From contig OZ025805.1 of the NCBI GenBank assembly GCA_964019425.1, positions 62,001 through 126,000 of the forward strand: 64,000 nt of DNA, read 5' to 3'. Each line of letters starts with the position of its first letter. The first letter of the stretch is position 1. The translations under genes and the position numbers were made by a program. Positions 6,687 to 64,000 of the stretch are shown piece after piece. The notes beneath the pieces are model-generated. The model was not told where the DNA came from. It saw only the letters and a list, made by a program, of their open reading frames with translations, and ran no database searches. Source of the DNA: Flectonema sp. DT1601 (taxonomy: Eukaryota).

Positions 6687-6759
6687 GACTAACCCAGAAA
6701 AAACATGCAAACGAGACTATATGAAAAACCCGATCAAATAAATAAATAAAAACCCGATC

Positions 6760-9816: not shown

Positions 9817-9888
9817 GGCGGCTTAGCTCAGTGGTAGAGCATTGGTCTTGTAAACCAAGGGTCGAGAGTTCGATCCTCTCAGTCGCCT
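9817..9888 (+). tRNA. trnT-UGU: tRNA-Thr(UGU)
   Basis: Cloverleaf: acceptor GGCGGCT/AGTCGCC, D arm GCTC/GAGC, anticodon arm TTGGT-CT-TGT-AA-ACCAA, T arm GAGAG-TTCGATC-CTCTC. Confidence 0.97.
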
Positions 9889-36655: not shown

Positions 36656-36791
36656 TATTTTTTTTTTTTTTTTTTTTTTCTGGTTACACTCCTGGGTGCA
36701 ACCATCTTCTTTGTTCATTGTTGTTTTCACTTCAATGTTTGCCTTTCTTTTTCACTTTCTTCTGGTAAAAGTCTGACAAGAACCAAGGGAA
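36656..36791 (-). mobile_element. Short 5'-truncated retrocopy related to the 3' end of retrotransposon B
   Basis: Absent from units 2-4. Ends GAGTGTAACCAG + poly(A); aligns by eye with 9687-9800. Confidence 0.85.
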
Positions 36792-37502: not shown

Positions 37503-39049
37503 TACTGACTGAAATGAGAATGAATAATTTGAAACTGACTATAATGCTGTCGAATAGGAGGGTTTAACTGTTCGAGTTTGTACGTAAAATACAAATGTAT
37601 TGTATCATAAACAACATAACGATAATTTAACATTAGTTCTGAGAGACAGTTGACTAAAGGTAATGTTAGTCTAATTTATTAAATCACATATGTGCTGTTG
37701 AATAGGGTGGGGTGGGTTATGGAGGTTTAAATTGACAATAATTACTGACTACATAACAAGATGCTTTTCCGGTATACCAAAAAAAAATCTAAAATTGTAC
37801 AAAAAAAAAAAAAAGAATTGGCTTTAACTTCAACTATACAGAAAATAATGATATAACACTGTGATTTTTTGTTTGCACGAAACCGGATAATTGAGCCTTT
37901 TTGATTTTGTTCAGTAATTCCTGAGGGGGGTGAAGTATAATGGGAGGGTTAAAGAACCACTTGCAATGGGGGCTTGGCGCTGTTAGTCAGAAAATCAGAA
38001 AACGTTTTTTGCTATTTCGAAGTCGCCTCAGTAATACTCCGCGTTATTGATCCCTGACATATTGTTGTGGTATTTGATGCTTGGTAAGTAGGAGGGTTAG
38101 GTTTTTTTTTTTTTTTTTTTTTTTACATATTCAAAAAACTTTCATTCCTTTTTGAGAAGAGAGGGAAAAAGAAGAAACCATTCAGATCAACCTTATATTT
38201 CGTTGAACGCAGACAAAAATCCTGTCGCACGGGAATATATATCATGATGACCATAAGAAATACCGGTTCTCAATCTGAATAGTTTAGTTATTTTAGTTAG
38301 CAAAATACAAACTGATGACTACGAGGGGTCTGGGTAGCCCGCATCAGTAAGGACCCAATCGCGAAAATTGTAGTTTCATAGTATTGGCTGGAAGTGATCG
38401 ACTTCCAGCCTCCACCTTGCCCAGAGGCTAACAGGTTGTAAACAACTAAAGAAAATAAAAGAGAAATTTTCTGGGGTGAAGGTGAAAAAAAAAATAAAAA
38501 ATCTTCTTTCTTTCATATAAAAATAATAATAATGAAATAAACAGTTCGAATGCTGCGTGATCTCTGTAGCCAATCGTGTCGTATCGTCACTTAAAGTGAG
38601 TACCGACAAACTAAAGAAGAAAAGCTTTATAAAAACTGATAAAAAACCAATATTTTTTTTTTCCCCTTCTTCTTTGGAGGAAACAAACGGGAAAGGGAAA
38701 AGTGGGGCGGTAAATTTGTCCTTTAATTATCAAGTTGGGAGAAAGAAAAACAATTTCAATTTCTGAAAGCAGCCGCCATCAATACAATTCCCACCCTGAA
38801 AAGGAGTGAGGCAATACCGCCGTAAGAAAGGCCAAAGAAAGATATTCTTTGACCGTAGTTGAAGTGGGAGAACAAAAAAAAAAAAATAATAATTCGGCAA
38901 AAAACTTCACTTTTTACTTTCGTACTAACGCTTTTATTTTGTTTGCGCAACCACAGGTACAAAAATCCTAATAAAGAAATAGGTTAGTTACGCTGTACAA
39001 CAAAAAAAAAAATAAAAAAAATAGAGGAGGCCGAGTACTACATGTCTAA

Positions 39050-39840
39050 TCAATTACTGCTTACTGATGAATCAGAGAAAACATAAACATCAGGCTGACT
39101 TTCACTTCGAGGTTTAGCCCACTTGTCAGGTGCGTTATCGTCATCGTCAAGATCAACATCCGGAGGATCGGTATTCTTTTCCCCTTTTTTTTTCATATAC
39201 TTATGTACCGCCATTAATATAAGCCCGCATAAACTGAGACCAGGGATCGAACAAACAATAACAACGGGAGTCATATTTCCTGTAGGCCACTCCCTTGGTG
39301 ATGCTGTAATGTCAGGTACCCCACCAAATGAAAGGCCTAGAAATATCGTGGGAATTACCTTACTTAGATCGGCAGTGAACTCGTCAGATTTCATGGTATT
39401 CCCTTCAAGTTGAATTCTCCATCCTAATAGTGACTCAAGAACATATCCAGTGTGAGAGTTGATTGTTGTTCCTTCACAAGTGAAACAGTTTCCAAATTTC
39501 CATGTTGAACCATTATTTAGTGCTCTGCATATTTCTAAGCACTTGGGAAGAGATACGAAGTCCTTTGAGAGCTCGTTCACAATAATTGAAAGTTTAGACT
39601 TCACATCTTCCAAAGGGATGTGCAATACGTAAACAGATAACAATACAGTTCGAGGTGTTTGTATACTCGCTGGGGGTTCTCCATCTGTCGGTGTTTGGTA
39701 GTTAACAAAATTATATTTTTTTAAAATAAAAAAAAAATATATATACCAAAGGGAGTATCTTTATGCATTTCCGCTTCTTCATTTAGACCCAACCCCACCG
39801 ACAATATCGCAAACAGGACTACTGCATGTGTGTAGATCAT
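39050..39840 (-). CDS. Array gene copy 2: signal peptide + single-TM protein, unknown function
   Basis: Same two-exon structure; acidic cytoplasmic tail (DVDLDDDDNAPD). Confidence 0.75.
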
Positions 39841-41387
39841 TACTGACTGAAATGAGAATGAATAATTTGAAACTGACTATAATGCTGTCGAATAGGAGGG
39901 TTTAACTGTTCGAGTTTGTACGTAAAATACAAATGTATTGTATCATAAACAACATAACGATAATTTAACATTAGTTCTGAGAGACAGTTGACTAAAGGTA
40001 ATGTTAGTCTAATTTATTAAATCACATATGTGCTGTTGAATAGGGTGGGGTGGGTTATGGAGGTTTAAATTGACAATAATTACTGACTACATAACAAGAT
40101 GCTTTTCCGGTATACCAAAAAAAAATCTAAAATTGTACAAAAAAAAAAAAAAGAATTGGCTTTAACTTCAACTATACAGAAAATAATGATATAACACTGT
40201 GATTTTTTGTTTGCACGAAACCGGATAATTGAGCCTTTTTGATTTTGTTCAGTAATTCCTGAGGGGGGTGAAGTATAATGGGAGGGTTAAAGAACCACTT
40301 GCAATGGGGGCTTGGCGCTGTTAGTCAGAAAATCAGAAAACGTTTTTTGCTATTTCGAAGTCGCCTCAGTAATACTCCGCGTTATTGATCCCTGACATAT
40401 TGTTGTGGTATTTGATGCTTGGTAAGTAGGAGGGTTAGGTTTTTTTTTTTTTTTTTTTTTTTACATATTCAAAAAACTTTCATTCCTTTTTGAGAAGAGA
40501 GGGAAAAAGAAGAAACCATTCAGATCAACCTTATATTTCGTTGAACGCAGACAAAAATCCTGTCGCACGGGAATATATATCATGATGACCATAAGAAATA
40601 CCGGTTCTCAATCTGAATAGTTTAGTTATTTTAGTTAGCAAAATACAAACTGATGACTACGAGGGGTCTGGGTAGCCCGCATCAGTAAGGACCCAATCGC
40701 GAAAATTGTAGTTTCATAGTATTGGCTGGAAGTGATCGACTTCCAGCCTCCACCTTGCCCAGAGGCTAACAGGTTGTAAACAACTAAAGAAAATAAAAGA
40801 GAAATTTTCTGGGGTGAAGGTGAAAAAAAAAATAAAAAATCTTCTTTCTTTCATATAAAAATAATAATAATGAAATAAACAGTTCGAATGCTGCGTGATC
40901 TCTGTAGCCAATCGTGTCGTATCGTCACTTAAAGTGAGTACCGACAAACTAAAGAAGAAAAGCTTTATAAAAACTGATAAAAAACCAATATTTTTTTTTT
41001 CCCCTTCTTCTTTGGAGGAAACAAACGGGAAAGGGAAAAGTGGGGCGGTAAATTTGTCCTTTAATTATCAAGTTGGGAGAAAGAAAAACAATTTCAATTT
41101 CTGAAAGCAGCCGCCATCAATACAATTCCCACCCTGAAAAGGAGTGAGGCAATACCGCCGTAAGAAAGGCCAAAGAAAGATATTCTTTGACCGTAGTTGA
41201 AGTGGGAGAACAAAAAAAAAAAAATAATAATTCGGCAAAAAACTTCACTTTTTACTTTCGTACTAACGCTTTTATTTTGTTTGCGCAACCACAGGTACAA
41301 AAATCCTAATAAAGAAATAGGTTAGTTACGCTGTACAACAAAAAAAAAAATAAAAAAAATAGAGGAGGCCGAGTACTACATGTCTAA

Positions 41388-42178
41388 TCAATTACTGCTT
41401 ACTGATGAATCAGAGAAAACATAAACATCAGGCTGACTTTCACTTCGAGGTTTAGCCCACTTGTCAGGTGCGTTATCGTCATCGTCAAGATCAACATCCG
41501 GAGGATCGGTATTCTTTTCCCCTTTTTTTTTCATATACTTATGTACCGCCATTAATATAAGCCCGCATAAACTGAGACCAGGGATCGAACAAACAATAAC
41601 AACGGGAGTCATATTTCCTGTAGGCCACTCCCTTGGTGATGCTGTAATGTCAGGTACCCCACCAAATGAAAGGCCTAGAAATATCGTGGGAATTACCTTA
41701 CTTAGATCGGCAGTGAACTCGTCAGATTTCATGGTATTCCCTTCAAGTTGAATTCTCCATCCTAATAGTGACTCAAGAACATATCCAGTGTGAGAGTTGA
41801 TTGTTGTTCCTTCACAAGTGAAACAGTTTCCAAATTTCCATGTTGAACCATTATTTAGTGCTCTGCATATTTCTAAGCACTTGGGAAGAGATACGAAGTC
41901 CTTTGAGAGCTCGTTCACAATAATTGAAAGTTTAGACTTCACATCTTCCAAAGGGATGTGCAATACGTAAACAGATAACAATACAGTTCGAGGTGTTTGT
42001 ATACTCGCTGGGGGTTCTCCATCTGTCGGTGTTTGGTAGTTAACAAAATTATATTTTTTTAAAATAAAAAAAAAATATATATACCAAAGGGAGTATCTTT
42101 ATGCATTTCCGCTTCTTCATTTAGACCCAACCCCACCGACAATATCGCAAACAGGACTACTGCATGTGTGTAGATCAT
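41388..42178 (-). CDS. Array gene copy 3
   Basis: Protein identical to copy 2 in the ORF track. Confidence 0.75.
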
Positions 42179-43725
42179 TACTGACTGAAATGAGAATGAA
42201 TAATTTGAAACTGACTATAATGCTGTCGAATAGGAGGGTTTAACTGTTCGAGTTTGTACGTAAAATACAAATGTATTGTATCATAAACAACATAACGATA
42301 ATTTAACATTAGTTCTGAGAGACAGTTGACTAAAGGTAATGTTAGTCTAATTTATTAAATCACATATGTGCTGTTGAATAGGGTGGGGTGGGTTATGGAG
42401 GTTTAAATTGACAATAATTACTGACTACATAACAAGATGCTTTTCCGGTATACCAAAAAAAAATCTAAAATTGTACAAAAAAAAAAAAAAGAATTGGCTT
42501 TAACTTCAACTATACAGAAAATAATGATATAACACTGTGATTTTTTGTTTGCACGAAACCGGATAATTGAGCCTTTTTGATTTTGTTCAGTAATTCCTGA
42601 GGGGGGTGAAGTATAATGGGAGGGTTAAAGAACCACTTGCAATGGGGGCTTGGCGCTGTTAGTCAGAAAATCAGAAAACGTTTTTTGCTATTTCGAAGTC
42701 GCCTCAGTAATACTCCGCGTTATTGATCCCTGACATATTGTTGTGGTATTTGATGCTTGGTAAGTAGGAGGGTTAGGTTTTTTTTTTTTTTTTTTTTTTT
42801 ACATATTCAAAAAACTTTCATTCCTTTTTGAGAAGAGAGGGAAAAAGAAGAAACCATTCAGATCAACCTTATATTTCGTTGAACGCAGACAAAAATCCTG
42901 TCGCACGGGAATATATATCATGATGACCATAAGAAATACCGGTTCTCAATCTGAATAGTTTAGTTATTTTAGTTAGCAAAATACAAACTGATGACTACGA
43001 GGGGTCTGGGTAGCCCGCATCAGTAAGGACCCAATCGCGAAAATTGTAGTTTCATAGTATTGGCTGGAAGTGATCGACTTCCAGCCTCCACCTTGCCCAG
43101 AGGCTAACAGGTTGTAAACAACTAAAGAAAATAAAAGAGAAATTTTCTGGGGTGAAGGTGAAAAAAAAAATAAAAAATCTTCTTTCTTTCATATAAAAAT
43201 AATAATAATGAAATAAACAGTTCGAATGCTGCGTGATCTCTGTAGCCAATCGTGTCGTATCGTCACTTAAAGTGAGTACCGACAAACTAAAGAAGAAAAG
43301 CTTTATAAAAACTGATAAAAAACCAATATTTTTTTTTTCCCCTTCTTCTTTGGAGGAAACAAACGGGAAAGGGAAAAGTGGGGCGGTAAATTTGTCCTTT
43401 AATTATCAAGTTGGGAGAAAGAAAAACAATTTCAATTTCTGAAAGCAGCCGCCATCAATACAATTCCCACCCTGAAAAGGAGTGAGGCAATACCGCCGTA
43501 AGAAAGGCCAAAGAAAGATATTCTTTGACCGTAGTTGAAGTGGGAGAACAAAAAAAAAAAAATAATAATTCGGCAAAAAACTTCACTTTTTACTTTCGTA
43601 CTAACGCTTTTATTTTGTTTGCGCAACCACAGGTACAAAAATCCTAATAAAGAAATAGGTTAGTTACGCTGTACAACAAAAAAAAAAATAAAAAAAATAG
43701 AGGAGGCCGAGTACTACATGTCTAA

Positions 43726-44518
43726 TCAATTACTGCTTACTGATGAATCAGAGAAAACATAAACATCAGGCTGACTTTCACTTCGAGGTTTAGCCCACTT
43801 GTCAGGTGCGTTATCGTCATCGTCAAGATCAACATCCGGAGGATCGGTATTCTTTTCCCCTTTTTTTTTCATATACTTATGTACCGCCATTAATATAAGC
43901 CCGCATAAACTGAGACCAGGGATCGAACAAACAATAACAACGGGAGTCATATTTCCTGTAGGCCACTCCCTTGGTGATGCTGTAATGTCAGGTACCCCAC
44001 CAAATGAAAGGCCTAGAAATATCGTGGGAATTACCTTACTTAGATCGGCAGTGAACTCGTCAGATTTCATGGTATTCCCTTCAAGTTGAATTCTCCATCC
44101 TAATAGTGACTCAAGAACATATCCAGTGTGAGAGTTGATTGCTGTTCTTTCACAAGTGAAACAGTTTCCAATTTTCCATGTTGAACCATTATTTAGTGCT
44201 CTGCATATTTCTAAGCACTTGGGAAGAGATACGAAGTCCTTTGAGAGCTCGTTCACAATAATTGAAAGTTTAGACTTCACATCTTTCAAAGGGATGTGCA
44301 ATACGTAAACAGATAACAATACAGTTCGAGGTGTTTGTATACTCGCTGGGGGTTCTCCATCTGTCGGTGTTTGGTAGTTAACAAAATTATATTTTTTTAA
44401 AATAAAAAAAAAATATATATATACCAAAGGGAGTATCTTTATGCATTTCCGCTTCTTCATTTAGACCCAACCCCACCGACAATATCGCAAACAGGACTAC
44501 TGCATGTGTGTAGATCAT
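43726..44518 (-). CDS. Array gene copy 4
   Basis: A few substitutions versus copies 2-3 and a 2-nt longer intron. Confidence 0.75.
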
Positions 44519-44840
44519 TACTGACTGAAATGAGAATGAATAATTTGAAACTGACTATAATGCTGTCGAATAGGAGGGTTTAACTGTTCGAGTTTGTACG
44601 TAAAATACAAATGTATTGTATCATAAACAACATAACGATAATTTAACATTAGTTCTGAGAGACAGTTGACTAAAGGTAATGTTAGTCTAATTTATTAAAT
44701 CACATATGTGCTGTTGAATAGGGTGGGGTGGGTTATGGAGGTTTAAATTGACAATAATTACTGACTACATAACAAGATGCTTTTCCGGTATACCAAAAAA
44801 AAATCTAAAATTGTACAAAAAAAAAAAAAAAAAAAAAAAT

Positions 44841-47722: not shown

Positions 47723-48893
47723 TCGCTTTACATTACTTATATGAACCTGAGAAAGAAGTATATGTTAAGATTGAAGGCAAAGACAAACACCAGAATTGTA
47801 TCCAACAAAAGAAATATCTACACTGTGAAGGGGTGCAGATTACTTCTGCGTAAGGGGTTATGTTTTAAAGTAGTAGTTGGAGGAAGAGGAGTGGGAGCAG
47901 AGTCTGAAAAAGGGAAAAATTAAACTAAAGGAAAGAAACGTTCTTTATCTACCCCAAGGGGATTTCACCGCAGGAGGAGACTTAACCGAGAAAGATATTT
48001 AGAAAGCTTTGATTCTGACCAGTCAGGATTGATCAGTGCATCTACTATAGAAAGGTCGTCTATAACAATATTTAAGTCGGTAGTTTTATATGAAATATCA
48101 ATAACTTCCATAACATGGTTCTTCACATCAGAGCGCAGAAGTGAGAAACTTGTCTTCCTTTCGATCTGCGCGATTAGTTTCTTCCTCACAAAAACACTCC
48201 GAAATGATGAAAATTTCTCCGAAAAAGGAAAACTCCCGCACATCCCTCCTGAGCAAGGAAATCCTTTATGTAAGGAAAAGATAATCAAAAACAAAAACAA
48301 GCAAGAAAAAACTGAAAGAGTAGGAAGATAGAATAGCAGATACCATATCTCGAATAGGGAATGGGGGATCCATTTGTGTCACATTCGTGTGCTTGTTGTG
48401 TTTAATATAAAACTCTCAAAACTACTTTATAAACTGACAATCTGTTATTCTTGTCCTTTCCACGATTCCAGTTTCACAAGTTCACAAAAGTATTATTTTT
48501 TTTTCGTTTAATTTTTCAATTGTTTCTTTCCGCAGAAATAAATATAACAAAAAACAAAACTTTAAAATTTAATTCACCACTTTATCCTGAATGATCAATC
48601 GCTGCATTCACAGACTCCTCAAAGAGAGCGCTATTACTTTCAGGCAGCGGCACAGATTCAAGATCGTTGCATTCACTGAGAAAGAGATCACCAATAGTAG
48701 TGACTCTACTAAGACTTGAAAGGTCAAGAGAAGTGATTTGTGAACAGTGAGGCAAGAAACAATTACCAATATTTGTGACACTACTAAAACCAGAAAAGTC
48801 AAGAGAAGTGATTTGTTCACAGTAAAATAAGAAATAATAGTGGTGACACTACTAAGACTTGAAAGGTCAAGAATAGGAATTCGTGAACAGTCA

Positions 48894-49591
48894 AAAAAAA
48901 TTAACCAGTGTTTAGGGTTTTGAATCCCATGGATCCCGTCGCTCAGGCGGTCCGGTGGAGAACCGGGTAGGGCACTGTGAACGAGTTGCGGTCCAGGTGG
49001 CGTCGGAAGGCCACCGCACCAACAGATTTGTTTCTTCGCACAACAGTAGCTTGGAGACCGTAAGAGACCCAAGGTGGTTCACAACCGCTCGAACAACTGC
49101 GTGTGAAGGAACAAGATTGAAAAGAAAAGAATATAAGAAAAGAAATGCCACACACAAAAAACGACGTAGTAAAGCAGAGAGGTAGGGGGAGGGATGGCCT
49201 CTTTCTCCACACATTGCATGGGAGCTCCCCGAGTAACTCAAGGGGCTGATACTGTTAATACATTTCAGGCGACCTGAACTTATAATCCCCCCATGCGTGA
49301 AAAGACTAAACGGGGGAAGTTTGAAGGAAATGGGGGTAAAGGGAAATCATGCCACTAAGGAAAAAATAAAAACCCGGTGGCCCCTGTGAGCTCTGGGTGC
49401 CTGAGTATCCCGGGCCGGATCACCTGACCTTCTGCTATGTTGTCCTTTTTTTTTAAAGGTTAGGCTACCGGAAAATAAAACGGGGGTAAAAGAATACACA
49501 GCAACAACAACAATACGTCAGCACTCTAGTTACACACAAGGTGCATCCAGGTAACACCACGAGGAGGCGCGCTATCCGAGTTTCGTTACCC
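48894..49591 (-). mobile_element. Non-autonomous ~698-bp retroposon X, copy 2
   Basis: About 99% identical to 52879-53573. Flanked by TGACTGTTCACAAATTACTA (49592-49611) and a 2-mismatch copy (48874-48893); 3' T-tract. Confidence 0.9.
49520..49591 (-). ncRNA. HDV-like self-cleaving ribozyme (5' end of X copy 2)
   Basis: Manual fold identical to 53502-53573. Confidence 0.8.
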
Positions 49592-49911
49592 TAGTAATTT
49601 GTGAACAGTCAGACAAGAAATCATCACCAATAGTGGTGATACTACTAAGACTTGAATGGTCAAGAGAAGTGATTTGTTCATAGAAATATAAAAAGAAATT
49701 CTCAATAGTGGTGACACTACTAAGACCTGAAAGGTCAAGAATAGTAATTTGTAAACAGTTAGACAAGAAACCATCACCAATAGTGGTGACACTACTAAGA
49801 CATGAAAGGTCAAGAATTGTAATTTTTGAACAGTAAGACAAGAAATAATTCCCAATAGTTGTGACACTACTAAGACCTGAAAGGTCAAGAATAGTAATTT
49901 GTAAACAGTTA

Positions 49912-52708
49912 TATGTACCATTTTGAGTGCTGTCATTCAGGCTTGCTAGCACGGTGAGATGACGAGGCACTGGTTCGGCCAACCTAAGTTAACCCCTTGT
50001 CCTGTGGTTCCCTTTCCGGGGTTTCCTCTGCTTTCGGTTTCATTTGTTTGGTGAAACCTAATTTTAGAAGCGATGTGCTGGTTTGCATATCATGCTTCGT
50101 CGGCTGCTTCGCCCTCCTCGTCAACGTCCTTATAATTGGCCCGTGATGCTTTTTGTTGCAGCATTTCGTGGCAGTCCGTTGTTCCGGATCCGGATTCCGC
50201 TTGCAGTCGTTGCAGGGAGCCATCTCGTGGTGACGGCATCGGTGGTGGCTGTTTCTGCAACATTGCTCAGATCCTCTGCCGATCACTATGCAGACTGCAC
50301 ATGGAGTAAGCTTGTGCTTGCTGCAAAAGTCCCATATCGGTATTTGTCCATCTTCATCCCCCAGAGTGTGATGGTTGTGGCAGCACTGGTAGATGGTGTT
50401 TCCGGCCCGTCGACAACTATTGCATTTCTTCTTGAAGTGTCCGTAGCACGTCGAGTTCATCGTTCCTTGTCCCTCCGCGATGCCCGGTCTCTTGACGACC
50501 TCGGGTGGCGGGCGTGTCGGTCCTCGCTCGCAGAGCTCCCTCCTCAGCTGTACGTCTTTTTCCTTTGATGGGAAAAGTCGTGCCGCGGTTATCCATTTCT
50601 CCGCTCTCCCTTCCCTCTCGCTCGAGTGCCTGCACTCAGTCTCGAAGCCGAATCTGATTTTGTCAGCTTTTCCGTCGTTCGCCTCCTGGACCGTCCTCCG
50701 AATTGTGTCTACTGTTTCGTCTCCCATCAGAAAAGCTGGTCGTTTCTTCAAACCTTTCAGTACCGGGGCTCCTAGTGGACGTAAGGCTTTGTTGCTTCCT
50801 ACGCAGTAGTCGGGAAAGGTTCTTTGTTCCTCGCCTTCTAAATGCTTGTGAACCAAGTTCAATCTTAGCATCAGTCCACACATGACGTCAGCTTTTTTCC
50901 CGGCGGCTCTGTCTTTGGTGCACTTCGCTACGTGGCCTTCGTGGACTGTGGTCGGTATGTCAACCCCCGCATACGCTTCGAAGTCGATCGCTAATTCCAG
51001 GAAGGTGACTCCGACTCCGTCTGGCTGTCGAGGCCACTTCAGTTCCCTCAGGTAGCTCGCAAGCGCTAAGTACAAGGTCAATCCAAGGGCTTCGGGCCAT
51101 TGGGTGTATACTGGCATGTACTTTTCCAGTTTGTTGTTGTATCTCATAACTACTTCCGGTTCCTTGTTCCCAGCGTATTCCACAACCATCAGCCGTCTCT
51201 CCTCCAGTTGTTGGTAGTCGTCCCTGCGGAGCCTGATCCGTGCGAACATTCGTTGTAGGTCTCCAGTGAGCCCCGCCGGCAGTTCCACATTGTCGGGCTT
51301 GATGCCGAGTAGCCTCAGGCAATTGGGCCAATCGCATCGAACTTGTAGCATCACTTGCGGGTATTCCTGTCGGATTGTGTCATAAGCTCTGCAATCCCAG
51401 TTCACGTGCTCGAGGGTCTCCGTCCTCTCTACGTCGTCAACCTCCTCGCAGTGCGCGCAGTTCTTGTTTCCCGCCTTCATCGAGCCAGTGTACACGTTGT
51501 CCAGGAGGCAGTGCTTCACTACTCCGCGCAGGTAGGGGTCGCCCTTTCCTTCCTTCAGGACCTTCAGGGTCTCTTTCCGGTCGATGCCCGCTTCAATACC
51601 TCTCAGGTTTACCCGTCTCGTTTCCGCAATTGTTTTGTTCCAGGTGAAACGCCTGCACGCCTCTCTGACATCGTGCCGCCAGCGCCCCGCATCCAGCCGT
51701 CCGTGTTCGGTCGTCCCTCCCGGACCTTCGAAGACCGAGAAAGTTGACCATTCCCATCCAAGTTCCTTCAGAGTACTCAGGGCGAGGCCGACTGGTCCTC
51801 TCGTCGCTTCAGTGTGCTCTTGCAGGTGTTCCCATACCCTGCGTATCCTCTCAGTTAGCTTCGGTAGCATTCTGGTGAGTGCAAGGAGTCTGTTGTACCT
51901 AATGTACGTCGCGGGATCCACACAATGTCCCTTGCAGAGTAGCGTTAGGCCCATGGTGTGCGACATCTTAGTTCTTTTCCCTCCAAGTTTGCGGAAAATC
52001 CCCGTTGCCCTTGCTCTTCTCAGCAGTCCGAGTCGCGTCGCATCGGGATCGTACAGTGCCGTTCCGAAGAGCGCCTTGGGCATGACACTAGCTGCAGCTA
52101 TCTGTTCCTTCGCTTGATATCTGAGCGGAAGTAACCGGATTCGCCTCGCTCTATCGAGCACTTCTTCTGTGATCCTCCCCATCTGCTTGGTGGTTCCTTT
52201 CATACTGAGGTGGCATCCCACGATATCGACACTGTCATCGAAGTCCAGTGTTGTGTCCCCCATTGTGATGTTGGTCTGGCCCTGGTCTCTGTTCGAGAAC
52301 CACTTGCACTTCTGAGGCGCGAGTTCTTGTCCGGTCAGGGTGCAGAACTCCGCAACGACTTCTACGCCTTCTTGTAGCTTCGTTCGTGATCCAAACAACG
52401 TCAGGTCGTCCGCATACGATCCGGGCGTCACATCGGCTTCCTTCTCGATTGCTTTGCTGAGTATCGAGCTCAGCGCATTGAAGAGCACCACGCTGAGCGG
52501 GCATCCTTGCAGTATTCCGTTGGTGGTGGCAAATTCTTCTCCGACGCCACTCGGGAACTTGAATCTCCTTCTGAGTCGCCGGTAGACATCCGTCACAGTT
52601 CTCAGGATCTTATCACCGAGGCCCAATTCCTTCACTAATTTCAGGAGGATGTCGTGCGGAATCAGGTCGAAACACTTCCTGAAGTCCGTGGTCACTCCTG
52701 CAATCTCT
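49912..52708 (-). mobile_element. 5'-truncated non-LTR retrotransposon C inserted at the LRR target motif
   Basis: GC-rich block. 5' flank TGACTGTTCACAAATTACTA (52709-52728), 3' flank TAACTGTTTACAAATTACTA (49892-49911); short structured 3' UTR with no poly(A). Confidence 0.88.
49984..52707 (-). CDS. Retrotransposon C ORF: RT, CCHC knuckle, 'FLELAIDF' region, triple Cys/His repeat
   Basis: TDFRKCFDLIPH, NGILQGCPLS, SYADD, IVGCHL; CAHC..ETLEHVNWDC; C-terminal CxxH-x4-CxxC..CC..HH x3. Confidence 0.9.
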   Translation of the reverse strand, partial: EIAGVTTDFRKCFDLIPHDILLKLVKELGLGDKILRTVTDVYRRLRRRFKFPSGVGEEFATTNGILQGCPLSVVLFNALSSILSKAIEKEADVTPGSYADDLTLFGSRTKLQEGVEVVAEFCTLTGQELAPQKCKWFSNRDQGQTNITMGDTTLDFDDSVDIVGCHLSMKGTTKQMGRITEEVLDRARRIRLLPLRYQAKEQIAAASVMPKALFGTALYDPDATRLGLLRRARATGIFRKLGGKRTKMSHTMGLTLLCKGHCVDPATYIRYNRLLALTRMLPKLTERIRRVWEHLQEHTEATRGPVGLALSTLKELGWEWSTFSVFEGPGGTTEHGRLDAGRWRHDVREACRRFTWNKTIAETRRVNLRGIEAGIDRKETLKVLKEGKGDPYLRGVVKHCLLDNVYTGSMKAGNKNCAHCEEVDDVERTETLEHVNWDCRAYDTIRQEYPQVMLQVRCDWPNCLRLLGIKPDNVELPAGLTGDLQRMFARIRLRRDDYQQLEERRLMVVEYAGNKEPEVVMRYNNKLEKYMPVYTQWPEALGLTLYLALASYLRELKWPRQPDGVGVTFLELAIDFEAYAGVDIPTTVHEGHVAKCTKDRAAGKKADVMCGLMLRLNLVHKHLEGEEQRTFPDYCVGSNKALRPLGAPVLKGLKKRPAFLMGDETVDTIRRTVQEANDGKADKIRFGFETECRHSSEREGRAEKWITAARLFPSKEKDVQLRRELCERGPTRPPPEVVKRPGIAEGQGTMNSTCYGHFKKKCNSCRRAGNTIYQCCHNHHTLGDEDGQIPIWDFCSKHKLTPCAVCIVIGRGSEQCCRNSHHRCRHHEMAPCNDCKRNPDPEQRTATKCCNKKHHGPIIRTLTRRAKQPTKHDMQTSTSLLKLGFTKQMKPKAEETPEREPQDKGLT

Positions 52709-52878
52709 TAGTAATTTGTGAACAGTCAGACAAGAAATCATCACCAATAGTGGTGACACTACTAAGACCTGAAAAGTCAAGAGAAGTGATTTTTTCACAG
52801 GATAACAGGAAATAATACCCAATAGTGGTGACGCTACTAAGACTTGAAAGGTCAAGAATAGTAATTTGTGAACAGTCA

Positions 52879-53573
52879 AAATTAACCAGTGTTTAGGGTT
52901 TTGAATCCCATGGATCCCGTCGCTCAGGCGGTCCGATGGAGAACCGGGTAGGGCACTGTGAACGAGTTGCGGTCCAGGTGGCGTCGGAAGGCCACCGCAC
53001 CAACAGATTTGTTTCTTCGCACAACAGTAGCTTGGAGACCGTAAGAGACCCAAGGTGGTTCACAACCGCTCGAACAACCGCGTGTGAAGGAACAAGATTG
53101 AAAAGAAAAGAATATAAGAAAAGAAATGCCACACACAAAAAACGACGTAGTAAAGCAGAGAGGTAGGGGGAGGGATGGCCTCTTTCTCCACACATTGCAT
53201 GGGAGCTCCCCGAGTAACTCGCGGGGCTGATACTGTTAATACATTTCAGGCGACCTGAACTTATAATCCCCCCATGCGTGAAAAGACTAAACGGGGGAAG
53301 TTTGAAGGAAATGGGGGTAAAGGGAAATCATGCCACTAAGGAAAAAATAAAAACCCGGTGGCCCCTGTGAGCTCTGGGTGCCTGAGTATCCCGGGCCGGA
53401 TCACCTGACCTTCTGCTATGTTGTCCTTTTTTTTTTAAAGGTTAGGCTACCGGAAAATAAAACGGGGGTAAAAGAATACACAGCAACAACAACAATACGT
53501 CAGCACTCTAGTTACACACAAGGTGCATCCAGGTAACACCACGAGGAGGCGCGCTATCCGAGTTTCGTTACCC
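52879..53573 (-). mobile_element. Non-autonomous 695-bp retroposon X, copy 1
   Basis: Perfect 20-bp TSD TGACTGTTCACAAATTACTA (plus-strand 53574-53593 and 52859-52878); no credible ORF. Confidence 0.92.
53502..53573 (-). ncRNA. HDV-like self-cleaving ribozyme (5' end of X copy 1)
   Basis: P1 GGGUAAC/GUUACCU (G1-U wobble), P2 AGCGC/GUGCU, P3 GCC/GGU, L3 UCCUCGU, P1.1 CC/GG, P4 AUGCAC/GUGUGU, J4/2 AAC-UAGA containing the putative catalytic C. Confidence 0.82.
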
Positions 53574-54476
53574 TAGTAATTTGTGAACAGTCAGACAAGA
53601 AATCATCACCAATAGTGGTGACACTACTAAGACCTGAAAAGTCAAGAGAAGTGATTTGTGAACAGTAATGCAAGAAATAATTCCCAATAGTGGTGACACT
53701 ACTAAGACTTGAAAGGTCTAGAGAAGTGATTTGTTTACAGCTTGACAAGAAATTATCACCAATAGTGGTGACACTACTAAGACCTGGAAGGTCAAGAATA
53801 GTAATTTGTGAACAACGAGACAAGAATCTATCTCCAATAGTAGTAACTAGTGAGATGTCTGTGTTGTTGGGATTTGAATTGCGGAAAGCAATCTGTTTGG
53901 CATCTGAAGGAAGCAGCTCACCGTCAACAGTGAGGCAACCATCTGCTGTGAATGTCGGAATGTCCAGATATAAGTACTCCGTAATGTGGTCTCTCATCCA
54001 AAGAAGCAGCTTCTCCCGTTTTGCATCATCAACAAACCAGCTTTTACCGAATATCCTGAACTACTTCTTCCACATTTCAAACTCGCTGTTTGCAACCACT
54101 CCATGATCTGCCAGCCGATCAGTTTCGCAAAGGGTATCACCAGCAAACGAGAGTTCAACTTCATCCGGATCGACATCCCACTCCTCAGCCGCCACCGTCA
54201 ACACGTCGATCACAACTGAATCAGTACCAGCCGTCACTGTCACTGCGGGGAGTCCCCAATCCGGACACGTCACAAAAACTTGCATTGTTGGTTTTTTTTT
54301 ATAATATATTTGCTGTGTTAATGGGGGAATGCCTGAAAACCAAAAAAGAGATTAGAAAAAAAAAATTGAACTCCAATAAGAAATATTCAAAAAAATACAT
54401 TGTTTTTTGTATAATATGAACAATGAAAAAAAAAAGGAAAACTCTCGTCTATTTAAAAATAAATCGTAAATCACAT

Positions 54477-57795: not shown

Positions 57796-60700
57796 TCACG
57801 TGCTCAACATACAAAAAGCAGCAGCTCCTCTCATGACCCAATGCTCTGATGAGATCTTGTCACCAATCGGAAAACTGAAATTCATAATATAATTAGTGGA
57901 CAACCCTGTAGTACTTAGGATTCCTGATCTAGTTAAAGCTTTATAAAGAGGACATTCATAACGACAAGGCTGCGGAGGAGTTGTTTTTAATATTGGTAGC
58001 AACCACAGAGCTGGGATGTCACTGAATAGCTGTCCAGGTATTGATTCAGCGACTTCTTGTTTTTGAGAGTCCCATCTCGCTCCTTCAAAATAAAATCCAA
58101 TCATACAGCAACCATCAGGGGGTGCTTCGGTTATTTCTGATAGTTTTGTTTCAGATCTAATCGTGACACTGAGTTTCAATTCATCAATAGGAATGGTGTG
58201 TTTTCTCGAATGCGTTTGTAAAACACCAGTCAAATATCCCTGTGGAAAGAACAACCCAGGAAGCCAATAACACTTTGGCATTCCGTTATAACACCATTCT
58301 CTGATAAATTCTATTCGTTTAATCATATCGACATACCATGCTTGTAAAGGTTTTAAACATAGGTATGCAACTTTTTCCCAATTTGGAGGAACTTTTCCAA
58401 ACAAAAAACTGTTTTGCATCATTTCTAAAGAAGCAGACAACACCACTTCACCAGTGATCGCTCTTTTTAATTCTTTTAAAGAAGACATTAAAATTCTTAA
58501 CAGGAGATTGAACTGATCAACTTCTTGTCCAAGTACCGTACCAAGTGAAATCATAGATCCAGTTTCCGTAATTTGAAACACGTCAGGATGAGCTTTGTTT
58601 TTATTAATTTGCTCTGGACACCGAGCGATAAAGTCTTCAGCAAGATCCCAAACAACGTTGTCGTTCGATGACCCTCCAGCTGATCCTCCTGCTTTAGGTT
58701 GAACGTTAACAATTGTCGTCATCAATGTGTTGCTTTCCTTTGCTTGAAATGTTATACTAGCATTTGATGGTAATCCAAATAAAGTAGGATCCTCATAAAG
58801 AGGAAGGTTTTCAAGCTGTTGAATAACATCGGAGTGAGAATCAGATTGCTGCGGAGGCTTGTAGTTACCGCTTTCATCGTAGCCGTAGTCACCTCCAAAT
58901 AATTCCATGTTGAAGTATTTTGATATGAAAGTATTCAAAAGCCTGCTATCGAGGAAATCTGTCACCCTACCTCCGTAGTTAATAACTCCAATAGTGTAAC
59001 GAACTGCCGGCCAAGGGATGTCCTCAAAGTCAGTTGTACACAGTCTGATGGTTTTTATACTTGCTGCGAGATCTGGTCCAGACCAATCATAAGAAATATT
59101 CCATCCCAAGGCACCAAATTTCCTCCTTTCTTGGATAAGACCGTGAAAGAACACCAACGTGAATATTAATCTCTTCCATTCAAGGCTTTTTTTCTCTCCT
59201 TGAGATGATTGTTCTTCCCAGAGCTCTTCACCGAGAGCAGAAAAATTATCTTTTAAGTTGGCACGGAGACCTTTTGGAGGTTCTTTTGTCAGTTTGAGTC
59301 CAACTTGTAACACTGGTACAGGAAATGACGGTGACGGGTTGCTCGTCAACCACAATCGAAAATCCGGTGAAACCTGTCCAGATGAAGCCTTTGCCTGCAA
59401 ATCTTCCATTATTTTTTCCAACTGAGGCATCCATGAAGTGTAAACGTGACAGTTTTGTAGATACACCCATTCACCCTCAGTTCGAGCTCGTTCGATCATC
59501 GCCTGAGCTTTTGGACCTTGATCTTGACCAAGAGAAAGCATTGCTAACTTTGTTGGATCGTATCCTTGTTCCTTCGCAAAACTCGTATAAATAACAGTTG
59601 GGTCTGTTCCTGTTGATAACACGAAGATGATTGGACAAGTGTTGCTCGAATCAGCGAATACCTCACTTAACTTAAATGGAGGTGATTCTGTGTAGGCTTT
59701 ACCCATCATTGATGCGACTGTTTTAGGAATTCCAAACAAACACTTTTCAGGTCGGAGTGCTCTCAATATGAGAAGTTTCTTCCATTCAGATAAAGAAGCA
59801 GCAGATCCAGGATACTGAGCGTCTTGTGGTTTCTCATCAGTAATCCATGAAGACCAGTTGTTATTTGTTGATAATTCTTCAGGTAGGAATTCGAATCCGG
59901 GAATAGTCGCAAGCGACGTCAGAGTTTCCCAATTAGAGTTCAACGAGACGCAACTTGGCTTCGGAAGGAGCTCTCCTCGAGATGAAGCTGCACCTCTCAA
60001 AAAGAAATTCCATTCATCATCAGGAATGTCACCAGTGTCTTGATGGATGTGATGGGTCATAAGAAATGCGAATATAATCTTATCCTTCTCAAAGAGACCT
60101 CTACAAATCGCATTGAAAGTAGCGATCGTAATAATTGGAACTAAATTTATAACACGTTCCTCAACACAATCAGATTGAGGAGTTTTTAGTATAGTAGAGG
60201 TGTACAGTGATTTATAAAATCCTAAGCTATATTGGTACATGTGATCGATGTTCGCAATGTCCGCGATAGTCGCGTACAGCAACGATCCCCTCGCCGCGAC
60301 TGGTCGATATTTTTCAGAGGCATCTCCGATTTCTTTACTTGTAATCTCAGCCTCTGCCAACGCATTAGTAACTTCATTACTCGTTACTTTCGAATCTGAA
60401 AGAGTTTGAATCAAATCGAGGTTGTCTAAAATATCACCCGTAGCTTCAGTTAGCATTTGTAAGATTTTATGTTGAATGTCATTTAGTGTTTTCTGACCTT
60501 CAGAGATTTGTAACACAACGTTGTCTTTATTCTCTGCAAGGTCAGCTCTCTCGACAAGAACGACGTCGTTGAGAAGCTGATCTTCCAGTCCTTTTGTTGT
60601 GACTGTGAAGTTAACGATTGCTACTTTGATCTGTAGCTCTGGTGAGTATGTCGGATTTGGTAATTTTGTTGTTAAATACAGTCTGAAGTTGTCATCGTAA

Positions 60701-63700
60701 TCGACTTCATTCTCACCTAATTTAACAACGTTTCGACCACCACTTTTGTAAACTTGTTTTAGAAGAACCGGATCTAAGGCGGCGTCTAACTCTTCGCTGA
60801 TATTTTCGAGTAAAACTGGTCTTCCTATTCTGATGTTTTGTTCTAATTGTTGCATGAATTTATCTTGCGAGAGTTTTAATACTTTTAGTTGGTTTGCAGC
60901 TTCTTTTTTTTTTATAAAACTGTTGGCTTGTCCTTGGGGATCAATCATCAAACACCAACGTTGAGAACGAGCTAGGATTGCTCCATTCTCTATGCTGAAT
61001 GGATCAGCTGGTAGTCCCCATAAAAGCCATTGACGTTTATCAACTTCCTCTGTTATGGAATCGAGTGAGAAGTTTTCTGTTACTGGAATTTGAAGTTGGT
61101 GGCACTTTTCAGTCCATTCTTGAACGATTTCCCTTCGAAATGCTGATGGAAAAGGACCGACGTAAGCGACTGATCCAGAGGCTAGAAGCATTGTTCCAAC
61201 TAATTTGTGTTTATTCTTTTCTAAGATCGCAACGTTTTCTTTCCAACGACCTGCTTCTCCTGCTAGCCCACCAAGAAGCTGATCAGCTCTGTCAAGTTTT
61301 GCAATCGCATCTCTCTTTTGAAGTTCTAAAGATTCTTTTTTTTGGATCGTATCCTCCGCATCGCTCTCCAGTTTTGCTACTTTTGCATTAACTTCATTTA
61401 AGGCTTTCTGTTTGACTTCGAGTTCTGCTTTTGCCTGTTCCAGTTTCGACTGTGCAGCCGTCAATGCTTCTTTCTTTGGTCCTAGATCTCTTGTAACCCA
61501 GTAGTAGTTATCGATTGCTCTAGCCCACATGCACATTGATTTACAGGCATTTGATGATTGACCGATGCTTTCGGGAGTGAATCCAGAGTCTTTAATAAAA
61601 ACTTGAAGTTTCTTAATGACCTTTGAGTCGATGTTATCTTTATCAAACTCTTCTAACTTTTTAAAGAATCTCGTATCAGTCATAAATTGTTTGGCTGTAC
61701 TCCAATCTAATTTTGAAGCACCCAGTAGAAGGATGACAGCGCACATGGTCTTTTCAACAGCCTCAGGTGGTTTGGCATATGATTTTATTTGGTCAATATC
61801 CTTTTTTTCAAGGGTTTTTAACGCTTCCTGAGCCTGAAAGAATACCGGCATTGCCTTGTCAAGACCAGCTTGGCATTCTGCTCTAATCTGCTCTGCCTCA
61901 CCCATGATCACATGGCATTTTGTTTCTTCAACTTCGACAACGGCTTTGACTTTTCCTGCTTCTTCTTTTCCTTTGGAGATTTCTCTGCCTTGGAGTTCTG
62001 CTTCGCGAGAGGCTTTTTCAAGTTTAGGTTGCATGTCTTGCAATTCTTTTTTTAGTTTTTTAACCATTTCAGAGGTGCTAGCGAGTTTGTCAAGACCTGA
62101 CTGGAATCTTTCTAGCTGTCTGTCAGTGTTGCTGGTACTCTCTTCTAACATAGTGAGATATGATGCAATGAGAGAAAGATAGCTTGTTGGAGTCGTGAAG
62201 TTCCTCCGTCTTAGAGAATTCCACATACTCTCAGAACGTTGTTCAATTGTCGTGTGCATTACTACACACATATCACCCAGAGTCTCCATTCGTTGGCTGA
62301 TTGTTTCTTTACATCCTCCAGTTGCTTTTTGAAATAATCTTTTAGCAACTTGTTTCAATGCTAATGATGGCCATTTAGTAAACCAATCAATAGTCATGCA
62401 GTTTACCAGAGATGGAAACATTCGGAGTCTGTTACGAAATTGATCACCGATAGGACTAACACAAAATATAACATGAAGATTATCTCTAACTAACTGTATG
62501 TAATAACGTATAATTGATCTTCTGTTGTCTGACGAACATCTTTCTCTAGTTGCGTTTATTATCCTTTCATAGTCTTCATTTTGATAGATATTAGGTACAT
62601 CACCAACATTCAAAACACTGTTGATATCTTCCAAGAATTGTTCACAGACGATTTGAGTATCTGCGAACAAGAACACGACCGGACTTCCTGAACAACCTGC
62701 TTCCAGCAATAATCCCTTTAAATCGTCTCTAAACTGTTGAACACCATAGCTCCGTGATACACTAATTTGAAGACATTTTTGACCACATATGAAAGCAGCT
62801 AGTTCAGTAATTGAGTGTCGACCAGATCCACCAACACCAACAAGGAGAGCGTTTCCTCGTGGCTGTCGAAGGATTCTACACATTCTGGTTAAGTGTTGTA
62901 TCGCATCATCGAACATAACGAGATCGATTTCTTTTGATGTTTGAACACCAAAGTCGATTTGATAATCTGCCAGTACCTCCTGCATATTAATAATCGTTGG
63001 ATCAATTTCTTTGTATGAATCACTTTTAATGTCTCCCCAGGATCCGAATAACATACTCTTCCAATCATTCGGAACTTCTTGTTTTAGATGTTTTCGAGTA
63101 ATTTCTGAAACACATTCCCACCACCATGATCTGTCTTCTTCACTGATCAGTCTATCATGAAATACTCTGCTGGTTTCATGAACGAATACTTTTGCTACTT
63201 GGACTGGGGTGTTCATGTTGGCTGTTTCAATCATCAGGAGTCCTTGAATTACTTTCGATAAGTCTCTTAAGTTAAACGTGTAATGAATTTTCAACGGAGT
63301 CGGAAGCATCTCGACTGAAATTTTTTGAAAGATATTAATAGTCGCAGCGACAACACTCCCCGCCATCGATCTAACTTCAGACGGAAACGATGACAAAAAA
63401 CCAGCTAAAATAGAAGTGAAAATAGCAGTCATACTCCCCACTGATAATAAAGGAACAGTCAAACAGTGAAAATGAGTTGTCAGTCGAGGAGTCATTTCGT
63501 GTTTACCTCCTCCAGGGGGTCCGCAGCAAGCGATGCAAATAACATCTCGAACTTCTTTGTAAATATCTTTTTTACGACGGTCGAAAAATCCTCCTTCACT
63601 CTCACCTGATGGGTTCATACCTCTTTGAAGCATTTGTCTTAGGAGTTCTAGTGGAGGAGAGGCGCCGTACTTCTCAGGCTCAGGCATGTTTGCGTCATCC

Positions 63701-64000
63701 ACTAAAAGGATACATCGTTTGCCTGGTGCTGCTCCAAGTAGCGTGTTTTTCTTCTTCGTCAGATTCGCTTCAATAAACTCTTGCAAATTAACAGCTGATG
63801 TCTGAGCTGAGAACGACATACTCGCTGACTGCCACGGCGCATTCGGATCCTCAGATTTCAAAACCTCGTTGAGAGCGAAATTAATAGTAGCCGACTTCCC
63901 TACTCCAGTAACACCGTTAACAAGAACATGTCTATTTACTGAAAGCAAATAGACAACATGTTGTCTTAAAATAGCCGTATCCGGGGTTTGAACTAACATG
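57796..64000 (-). CDS. Axonemal dynein heavy chain, 3' part (AAA3 to C-terminus)
   Basis: GVTGVGKS, PEKYGASPPLELLRQ, GNALLVGVGGSGR, stalk/MTBD, LMIDPQGQAN, WVYLQNCH, HWVMRGAA; open to the window edge. Confidence 0.97.
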   Translation of the reverse strand, partial: MLVQTPDTAILRQHVVYLLSVNRHVLVNGVTGVGKSATINFALNEVLKSEDPNAPWQSASMSFSAQTSAVNLQEFIEANLTKKKNTLLGAAPGKRCILLVDDANMPEPEKYGASPPLELLRQMLQRGMNPSGESEGGFFDRRKKDIYKEVRDVICIACCGPPGGGKHEMTPRLTTHFHCLTVPLLSVGSMTAIFTSILAGFLSSFPSEVRSMAGSVVAATINIFQKISVEMLPTPLKIHYTFNLRDLSKVIQGLLMIETANMNTPVQVAKVFVHETSRVFHDRLISEEDRSWWWECVSEITRKHLKQEVPNDWKSMLFGSWGDIKSDSYKEIDPTIINMQEVLADYQIDFGVQTSKEIDLVMFDDAIQHLTRMCRILRQPRGNALLVGVGGSGRHSITELAAFICGQKCLQISVSRSYGVQQFRDDLKGLLLEAGCSGSPVVFLFADTQIVCEQFLEDINSVLNVGDVPNIYQNEDYERIINATRERCSSDNRRSIIRYYIQLVRDNLHVIFCVSPIGDQFRNRLRMFPSLVNCMTIDWFTKWPSLALKQVAKRLFQKATGGCKETISQRMETLGDMCVVMHTTIEQRSESMWNSLRRRNFTTPTSYLSLIASYLTMLEESTSNTDRQLERFQSGLDKLASTSEMVKKLKKELQDMQPKLEKASREAELQGREISKGKEEAGKVKAVVEVEETKCHVIMGEAEQIRAECQAGLDKAMPVFFQAQEALKTLEKKDIDQIKSYAKPPEAVEKTMCAVILLLGASKLDWSTAKQFMTDTRFFKKLEEFDKDNIDSKVIKKLQVFIKDSGFTPESIGQSSNACKSMCMWARAIDNYYWVTRDLGPKKEALTAAQSKLEQAKAELEVKQKALNEVNAKVAKLESDAEDTIQKKESLELQKRDAIAKLDRADQLLGGLAGEAGRWKENVAILEKNKHKLVGTMLLASGSVAYVGPFPSAFRREIVQEWTEKCHQLQIPVTENFSLDSITEEVDKRQWLLWGLPADPFSIENGAILARSQRWCLMIDPQGQANSFIKKKEAANQLKVLKLSQDKFMQQLEQNIRIGRPVLLENISEELDAALDPVLLKQVYKSGGRNVVKLGENEVDYDDNFRLYLTTKLPNPTYSPELQIKVAIVNFTVTTKGLEDQLLNDVVLVERADLAENKDNVVLQISEGQKTLNDIQHKILQMLTEATGDILDNLDLIQTLSDSKVTSNEVTNALAEAEITSKEIGDASEKYRPVAARGSLLYATIADIANIDHMYQYSLGFYKSLYTSTILKTPQSDCVEERVINLVPIITIATFNAICRGLFEKDKIIFAFLMTHHIHQDTGDIPDDEWNFFLRGAASSRGELLPKPSCVSLNSNWETLTSLATIPGFEFLPEELSTNNNWSSWITDEKPQDAQYPGSAASLSEWKKLLILRALRPEKCLFGIPKTVASMMGKAYTESPPFKLSEVFADSSNTCPIIFVLSTGTDPTVIYTSFAKEQGYDPTKLAMLSLGQDQGPKAQAMIERARTEGEWVYLQNCHVYTSWMPQLEKIMEDLQAKASSGQVSPDFRLWLTSNPSPSFPVPVLQVGLKLTKEPPKGLRANLKDNFSALGEELWEEQSSQGEKKSLEWKRLIFTLVFFHGLIQERRKFGALGWNISYDWSGPDLAASIKTIRLCTTDFEDIPWPAVRYTIGVINYGGRVTDFLDSRLLNTFISKYFNMELFGGDYGYDESGNYKPPQQSDSHSDVIQQLENLPLYEDPTLFGLPSNASITFQAKESNTLMTTIVNVQPKAGGSAGGSSNDNVVWDLAEDFIARCPEQINKNKAHPDVFQITETGSMISLGTVLGQEVDQFNLLLRILMSSLKELKRAITGEVVLSASLEMMQNSFLFGKVPPNWEKVAYLCLKPLQAWYVDMIKRIEFIREWCYNGMPKCYWLPGLFFPQGYLTGVLQTHSRKHTIPIDELKLSVTIRSETKLSEITEAPPDGCCMIGFYFEGARWDSQKQEVAESIPGQLFSDIPALWLLPILKTTPPQPCRYECPLYKALTRSGILSTTGLSTNYIMNFSFPIGDKISSEHWVMRGAAAFCMLST

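Follow-up and report, generated by a model that had tools for sequence, protein, structure and literature searches.

The closest described systems to the locus considered here are retroposons without long terminal repeats (non-LTR retroposons) that begin with a ribozyme. R2 and the L1Tc-type elements carry 5' ribozymes resembling that of hepatitis delta virus (HDV), by which they are reported to be cut from co-transcripts (PMC3774820, PMC4035085). The R2 ribozyme has a core that converges on that of HDV, and its P4, J1/4 and J1/2 are variable (PMC3774820). The L1TcRz/Pr77 sequence is present in both autonomous and non-autonomous retroposons, and its insertions in mRNAs have been proposed to cut the host transcripts (PMC4035085). 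Here, a stretch of 64,000 nucleotides (nt) of contig OZ025805.1 was analyzed, termed the window, in which a non-coding element, X, is inserted twice within a leucine-rich repeat (LRR) gene. The first 72 nt of X display the architecture and the core letters of an HDV-like double-pseudoknot ribozyme, with self-cleavage predicted just 5' of its first nucleotide, G1, which would free the X RNA from read-through transcripts of the LRR gene or its gene cluster. The probability of this reading is placed at about three in four. The analogy with R2 and L1Tc had already been drawn in an earlier examination of the letters of the window (the sequence-only reading), and the two papers back it.

The limits of X are given by alignment of its two copies and by the insertion junctions. 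G1 stands directly after a 19-nt target-site duplication (TSD), GACTGTTCACAAATTACTA, and the two copies align from G1 to ...CACTGGTTAATTTT. Excision of copy B together with one duplicate (696 + 19 = 715 nt) restores the 75-nt phase of the LRR array, the observed spacing of 790 being equal to 75 + 715. Since the phase is restored exactly, G1 is the first base of the insert and the 5' side is unambiguous. Position +1 of the candidate ribozyme is therefore the first nucleotide of X as defined by the insertion junction, and the earlier proposal that the predicted cleavage site and the element boundary coincide is borne out. The window coordinate of RNA position i is 53574-i for copy B and 49592-i for copy A. 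The features are as follows.

52878 to 53573, minus strand: element X copy B, non-coding, 696 nt, delimited by copy alignment and junctions, ending in TTAATTTT.
48893 to 49591, minus strand: element X copy A, 699 nt, which aligns to copy B with 691 matches and differs from it by 4 mismatches and 5 gap letters.
53574 to 53592, minus strand: upstream TSD of X copy B, 19 nt, from the reading of the junction.
52859 to 52877, minus strand: downstream TSD of X copy B, 19 nt, a perfect match.
49592 to 49610, minus strand: upstream TSD of X copy A, from the reading of the junction.
48874 to 48892, minus strand: downstream TSD of X copy A, with 2 mismatches.
53502 to 53573, minus strand: HDV-like ribozyme candidate of copy B, with RNA position 1 at 53573, a descriptor match and a weak match to RF02682.
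49520 to 49591, minus strand: HDV-like ribozyme candidate of copy A, identical in sequence to that of copy B, a descriptor match.
53511, minus strand: C63, the candidate catalytic cytosine in J4/2, read from the sequence, one unpaired A after P4.

The motif RNA of copy B starts with GGGUAAC and runs from 53573 down to 53502, and across its 72 nt there are zero differences between copies A and B. Reading of the sequence together with the descriptor scan places P1 at positions 1-7 with 37-43, where G1.U43 forms the base of the helix, such that G1 lies in a G.U wobble at the 5' base of P1, as expected at the cleavage site. J1/2 occupies positions 8-18 (11 nt). P2 consists of positions 19-23 with 68-72 and abuts P3 directly, U18.G73 being a possible extra pair, and P3 consists of 24-26 with 34-36, followed immediately by the 3' strand of P1. 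L3 (27-33) reads UCCUCGU, in which C28 and C29 pair with G45 and G44 to form P1.1; the U, the CC pairing with GG, and the G of L3 that characterize the L3/P3/P1.1 core are all found. P4 is best placed in the register 47-51 with 57-61, from U47-A61 to C51-G57, at -3.2 kcal/mol (ViennaRNA), and the alternative A46-U60 register has -2.7 kcal/mol (ViennaRNA). On the 3' side of P4, the order is A62, C63, UAGA and the 3' strand of P2. P1, P2, P3, P1.1 and P4 thus occur in the canonical HDV-like order. The full double pseudoknot claimed in the sequence-only reading was recovered by the descriptor scan in both copies, and the individual parts named there (a wobble pair of G1 with U, a loop reading UCCUCG, the GG of P1.1, a hairpin at P4, the C in J4/2 and P2) are all present. 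Its coordinates are right for both copies, including the second at 49520-49591, identical over the ribozyme; the strand requires correction, the motif being located on the minus strand.

Comparison by eye with the HDV ribozyme printed in bioRxiv 10.1101/2022.09.17.508400 reveals the same elements in the same order: GGGU at +1, CC-UCCUCG-N-GGU, a P1 whose 3' strand closes with ACCU, then GG, and C-U-A ahead of P2. In structural terms, the two have in common the helix order, the G1.U at the cleavage site, an L3 of UCCUCG plus one base, a P3 3' strand of GGU, and the GG forming P1.1. The J4/2 order of X, C-U-A-(G)-A-P2, resembles the C-U-A-A-P2 of the printed HDV ribozyme. X differs from it in a longer J1/2 (11 nt), a G.U in place of A-U in P3, an unrelated P4 and one extra base in J4/2. 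The contexts also differ, X being a retroposon in nuclear DNA whereas HDV is a circular RNA replicon.

The specificity of the fold was evaluated with a strict descriptor composed of structure only. It requires 7 base pairs (bp) in P1, 3 bp in P3 and 4-12 bp in P4, two Watson-Crick pairs in P1.1, 6-8 nt in L3, a J4/2 of 3-8 nt in which a C occurs, and, beside P3, a P2 with 5 bp or more. Three start sites were obtained in the 128,000 window positions (both strands), namely the two X copies and a site at 31095. Random first-order Markov sequence of window-like and of element-like composition (5.12 Mb each) yielded 1 match apiece, a rate of ~2e-7 per position, and with G1..U and L3 = UCC added to the descriptor, 0 matches were found in 10.24 Mb of random sequence. 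The descriptor was designed after the candidate had been seen, so this chance rate is somewhat flattering; the match coincides, however, with a position fixed independently by the insertion junction. The third site (31095-31015, minus strand) is AT-rich, lacks both G1.U and UCC, and was rejected as a chance match. A looser ribozyme descriptor proved non-specific, with 225 start sites in the window, among which only the X copies have L3 = TCCTCGT. A metagenome scan with the core pattern returned 71 loci with a GC content of 0.55-0.77, none with X-like flanks, and these are read as chance matches; the exact 22-nt core had 0 occurrences in viral contigs and 0 in prokaryote genome contigs.

X shares its target with a second element. 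LINE-Y, a long interspersed nuclear element (LINE), sits between the two X copies, and the LRR gene is thereby broken by three insertions.

49910 to 52708, minus strand: LINE-Y, a 5'-truncated non-LTR retrotransposon, with a reverse transcriptase (RT) open reading frame (ORF) at 49984-52695 that matches RVT_1.
53574 to 53997, minus strand: 5' part of the BspA-type LRR gene interrupted by X, assigned by Pfam LRR_5 and the 75-nt repeat family.
52709 to 52877, 49592 to 49909, and 48582 to 48892, minus strand: further pieces of the LRR gene, assigned by the 75-nt repeat family.

The 75-nt repeat array encodes BspA-type LRR (Pfam LRR_5, 1.7e-14 and 2.6e-10). LINE-Y is flanked by an 18-nt duplication (52726-52709 and 49909-49892), with ...ACAAATTACTA followed by AGAGATTG... 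at its upstream junction (52709/52708) and ...GGTACATATA followed by ACTGTTTACAAATTACTA... at its downstream junction (49910/49909). Its removal (2799 + 18 = 2817 nt) likewise restores the LRR phase, the spacing of 2892 being equal to 75 + 2817. X and LINE-Y are therefore inserted after the same ...ACAAATTACTA of the 75-nt unit, with duplications of 19 and 18 nt, respectively. This shared insertion point suggests retrotransposon homing to a protein-coding repeat. The LINE-Y ORF aligns with residues 839-1748 only of a 1748-amino-acid (aa) transcriptome protein, at 58% identity, which indicates that the LINE is 5'-truncated. A relative of LINE-Y carries the AP-type endonuclease domain PF03372. 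A full-length LINE-Y-like protein, P0002, had no confirmed relatives in viral contigs or prokaryote genome contigs. A long Cys/His-rich tail closes the LINE-Y ORF and recurs in the 1748-aa relative. The GC content of LINE-Y is 54%, that of the host being ~36-41%.

Identity between the two X copies is 98.7%, whereas in their flanks it amounts to 92% (91 nt upstream), 89% (150 nt upstream) and 85% (downstream); the difference in divergence between X and flank is significant (Fisher p = 0.001 and 9e-13). Given this much greater divergence of the flanks, two separate insertions of X into sister LRR units are more likely, as judged from the alignments, than one insertion followed by duplication, and segmental duplication as the origin of the two copies was judged less likely for the same reason. 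Gene conversion may also have produced the likeness of the copies. In the public sequencing run X1, furthermore, a contig of 290 nt (depth 2) joins the 5' end of X to a different LRR unit at the same place and with the same first base. On the basis of these junctions, X is taken to be a mobile family of at least 3 copies, homing, like LINE-Y, to a single position of the LRR unit.

The marine metatranscriptome run X2 contains a relative. Its 314-nt contig (minus strand) covers 53255-53567 at ~95% identity to X, with 8 substitutions and 7 gap letters; flank sequence is absent from it, and its end falls 6 nt before G1. Inside the ribozyme, only U56>A and a UC insertion after C51 are observed, and these changes turn P4 from 5 bp (-3.2 kcal/mol) to 7 bp (-7.2 kcal/mol) with the register kept. 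This is the sole compensatory event seen, and P4 is the least constrained helix. P1, P2, P3, L3 and J4/2 are unchanged in this relative, which fits constraint and, at this divergence, is statistically indistinguishable from the rest of X. A narrower search over 53470-53585 returned only the X1 contig; runs X2, X4 and X5 had no cover there, which is no proof of absence, and chance can account for the X2 contig being missed in it. The cover in run X3 was limited to 53160-53307.

Several observations weigh against an active HDV-like ribozyme at the head of X. The Rfam search proposed with the sequence-only reading gave a sub-threshold result. At gathering thresholds, no ribozyme was found in the window, the single match being a tRNA at 9817-9888, and in a permissive scan the best that was obtained at the motif was RF02682, the F. 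prausnitzii HDV ribozyme, with 15.5 bits (E = 1.6), the gathering score of this model being 44. Other HDV-type Rfam families gave no match at E <= 10. The RF02682 alignment is full length, starts exactly at 53573, and has P1 and P3 paired. It should be noted that Rfam covariance models cannot score pseudoknots and that the HDV-like family is diverse in sequence (PMC10879173). The nested minimum free energy (MFE) fold is no better than that of shuffled sequences (z = -0.36), a comparison that is uninformative because the folding program cannot score pseudoknots. Together with the non-specificity of the looser descriptor, the Rfam score and the MFE result are what would be expected if the fold were accidental in a GC-richer stretch and X merely a duplicated insert. 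Such a chance resemblance is nevertheless very improbable, given the low random rate of the strict descriptor, its match on a position defined by the TSD, core letters equal to those of HDV, and the compensating change in P4.

The junction between P4 and P2 is a second point of weakness. The catalytic C of HDV-like ribozymes occupies the first J4/2 position (PMC10879173). In X, with P4 in its best register, an unpaired A62 separates the helix from C63, so that C63 is not the first base after P4, and J4/2 exceeds that of the printed HDV ribozyme by one base. Moreover, 11 nt are missing from the X copy in run X1, 53504-53514 (RNA positions 60-70), a span that takes in C63 and most of the 3' strand of P2; provided that the depth-2 contig is correct, this copy would have no activity. 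In the same run, the depth is ~2 over X versus 70-97 over the LRR repeats, which implies that X is not high-copy there. The displaced cytosine, the deletion and the three insertions that have already broken the host LRR gene would all suit a history in which the 5' module of X descends from the true HDV-like ribozyme of a master element, and the copies in the window are inactive relics that mark the former start of the RNA. This is considered unlikely. The copies in the window are identical over 72 nt and 1.3% apart overall, which points to recent insertions; the ~95% relative keeps every core position and improves P4; and R2 ribozymes tolerate variable J1/4 and P4 (PMC3774820).

Further points count against the predicted cleavage or its role. 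P1, P2 and P3 are invariant among the two copies in the window, one X1 contig and one X2 contig. Of the covariation to which the sequence-only reading had looked, one compensating change in P4 is seen, P1, P2 and P3 showing no variation in the few copies available. The X2 contig is a weak hint of RNA that starts at the X boundary, contigs being unable to prove RNA ends and DNA being a possible contaminant of RNA libraries. Finally, no poly(A) tail is present at the 3' end of either X copy, which closes with T4 in copy B and T8 in copy A, and X has no match by blastn to LINE-Y or to two other LINEs of the window, the 3' end included.

As for the content of X beyond the ribozyme, blastn against the window found only its own two copies and low-complexity bits, a permissive Rfam scan of the remaining 620 nt gave no credible match, only weak implausible ones, and tblastn with P0002, P0003 and P0004 detected no LINE-Y-like coding remnant in it. 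An internal A-run is located at positions 138-147, about 65 nt after the ribozyme, comprising A10 in copy B (53427-53436) and A9 in copy A (49446-49454); X could be a composite of a short ribozyme-headed, A-tailed unit and other sequence. In addition, a 36-nt piece at X positions 502-537 (53037-53072) recurs, with 2-5 mismatches, in each of seven other contigs of run X2. These contigs reach depths of up to 73 and have unlike flanks, and Rfam finds no rRNA there. The piece could be a motif shared with other elements or with an abundant RNA.

The setting of X in its host bears on how it would be transcribed. The sequence-only reading had invoked trypanosomatid elements and a polycistronic host transcript; a trypanosomatid host does not agree with the host proteins. 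For the dynein heavy chain (57796-63999), identity is 74% with Diplonema papillatum, against 51% with Bodo saltans and 44-45% with trypanosomatids, and the adenylosuccinate synthetase (28287-30110) has 90% identity to one transcriptome protein, 70-75% to several others and 54-58% to kinetoplastids. Judged by these proteins, the host is a diplonemid other than D. papillatum and not a trypanosomatid. Every ORF of at least 200 aa between 10.6 and 64 kb (10624-63999, 53 kb) is encoded on the minus strand, the strand that also carries X, LINE-Y and the LRR gene, so that X is in sense orientation within the LRR gene of a one-strand gene cluster. In D. papillatum, one-strand gene clusters are reported to be likely co-transcribed and matured by spliced leader (SL) trans-splicing (PMC10161547). 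By analogy with that paper, and from the one-strand cluster itself, polycistronic transcription is inferred for the window. The orientation expected of a retroposon freed from a host transcript is thus observed, with X sense in the presumed host transcription unit and an X-like contig in one RNA library.

The following mechanism is proposed. X, which has no visible promoter of its own, would be transcribed by read-through within the long primary transcript of the host. The ribozyme would fold co-transcriptionally, and C63 in J4/2 would catalyze scission 5' of G1, generating a downstream product that begins with the first nucleotide of X and simultaneously severing the host LRR transcript. Both the self-cleavage and the cutting of the LRR mRNA are predictions of the modeled fold. 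Target-primed reverse transcription would then return the freed X RNA to the same LRR target, with the enzyme supplied by an endonuclease/reverse transcriptase of the LINE-Y type, as for R2 and its non-autonomous derivatives, the short internally deleted elements (SIDEs). Since X shares no sequence with LINE-Y, this partnership has the common target site as its one line of evidence and is the weakest step of the mechanism; the true autonomous partner of X may lie elsewhere in the genome, outside the window. A different origin of the RNA start can be envisaged, in which the 72 nt act mainly as an internal promoter or a protein-binding hallmark like the trypanosomatid Pr77, and initiation of transcription sets the first nucleotide of X RNA. 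There is a precedent, in that the same 77 nt of L1Tc are reported to be both promoter and ribozyme (PMC3383444, PMC4748587). For X, however, no promoter evidence was obtained, all insertions are sense in a transcribed-strand gene, as dependence on read-through predicts, and the conserved letters are those of the ribozyme core, which together render a mainly promoter function improbable. Returning to cleavage from read-through transcripts, a wider proposal is made more tentatively: X and LINE-Y may form an R2-like homing system of diplonemids that combines a fixed BspA-type LRR position, polycistronic transcription and a ribozyme whose core is near letter-for-letter that of HDV. This is a possibility to which we give somewhat less than even credence.

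R2 and its SIDE derivatives provide the closest working analogy for X. Like X, they are inserted site-specifically and in sense orientation in a transcribed, repeated host gene, with a double-pseudoknot ribozyme at the 5' junction (PMC3774820). R2 and the R2 SIDEs of Drosophila also resemble X in having a P3/L3/P1.1 core near that of HDV and no poly(A), and in that short non-coding derivatives keep the ribozyme (PMC3774820, PMC3414825). The differences concern target, partner and cleavage. The target of X is a protein-coding BspA-type LRR repeat in a diplonemid, whereas that of R2 is 28S rDNA. SIDEs keep the R2 3' end, and X has no such segment in common with LINE-Y. Cleavage is predicted at the exact junction for X, whereas in many R2 elements it is located upstream, in the 28S gene. 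R2 uses a restriction-like endonuclease, whereas a relative of LINE-Y, the LINE inserted at the same site as X, has the AP-type domain mentioned above.

The closest phylogenetic analogy is provided by the L1Tc/NARTc, ingi/RIME and SIDER elements of trypanosomatids. L1TcRz/Pr77 and X have in common a euglenozoan host, polycistronic transcription (presumed for X) and an HDV-like ribozyme (a candidate in X) in the first ~77 nt (PMC3185411, PMC3383444, PMC4035085). X falls outside the Pr77 group by its host, which is diplonemid-like, and by the type of LINE, no trypanosomatid protein having been found among the 7 relatives of the LINE-Y ORF. Furthermore, the L1Tc-type elements are not reported to be specific for one LRR-repeat site, unlike X.

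Other features of the window are recorded here. The long genes within 10624-63999 are uninterrupted, for example the dynein heavy chain, which has 2067 aa to the window edge, and the one-strand cluster is of a type described in diplonemids and kinetoplastids. A 2338-bp unit occurs in four tandem copies, 97-100% alike, over 35407-44689, the first spacing being 2480-2481, and each carries an ORF that Pfam does not match, such as 43726-44460 (minus strand). Tandem motifs of 2.5 kb that are similar and hold an untranscribed ORF are described in D. papillatum, the genome of which has about 2,500 transposon-type gene models (PMC10161547). On the plus strand, two LINE-like ORFs lie head to tail over 2806-9310, just upstream of the tRNA gene at 9817-9888 (plus strand, 71.3 bits). 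The first (2806-6417) encodes endonuclease, RT and RNase H and the second (6836-9310) RT and RNase H, and both are distant from LINE-Y (31% over 99 aa). No HDV-like motif was detected on their 5' sides by descriptor scans, and a permissive Rfam scan at the 2806 side gave weak implausible matches only.

Ribozyme-headed non-LTR retroposons are a known kind of element, and the novelty of X lies in its host group and its homing target. Among the papers listed in literature searches, none combines diplonemids (or Bodo or Euglena) with HDV-like ribozymes, and none deals with site-specific non-LTR elements that target LRR or BspA repeats; the word ribozyme has 0 occurrences in the main text of the genome paper on D. 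papillatum (PMC10161547). X is apparently the first such element noted in diplonemids, to which it would extend the ribozyme-headed retroposons. It supplies a compact 72-nt candidate with an HDV-identical core, paired with an unusual fixed-position target in a protein-coding LRR. Diplonemids are a very abundant group of marine protists. If the reading of X and LINE-Y as a homing system is true, ribozyme-headed retroposons would be either ancestral to Euglenozoa beyond the trypanosomatids or repeatedly evolved in them, and each insertion would plant a self-cutting site within a surface-protein gene family. If the ribozyme is active, every X insertion would cut the host LRR transcript, which bears on the silencing or diversification of such gene families.

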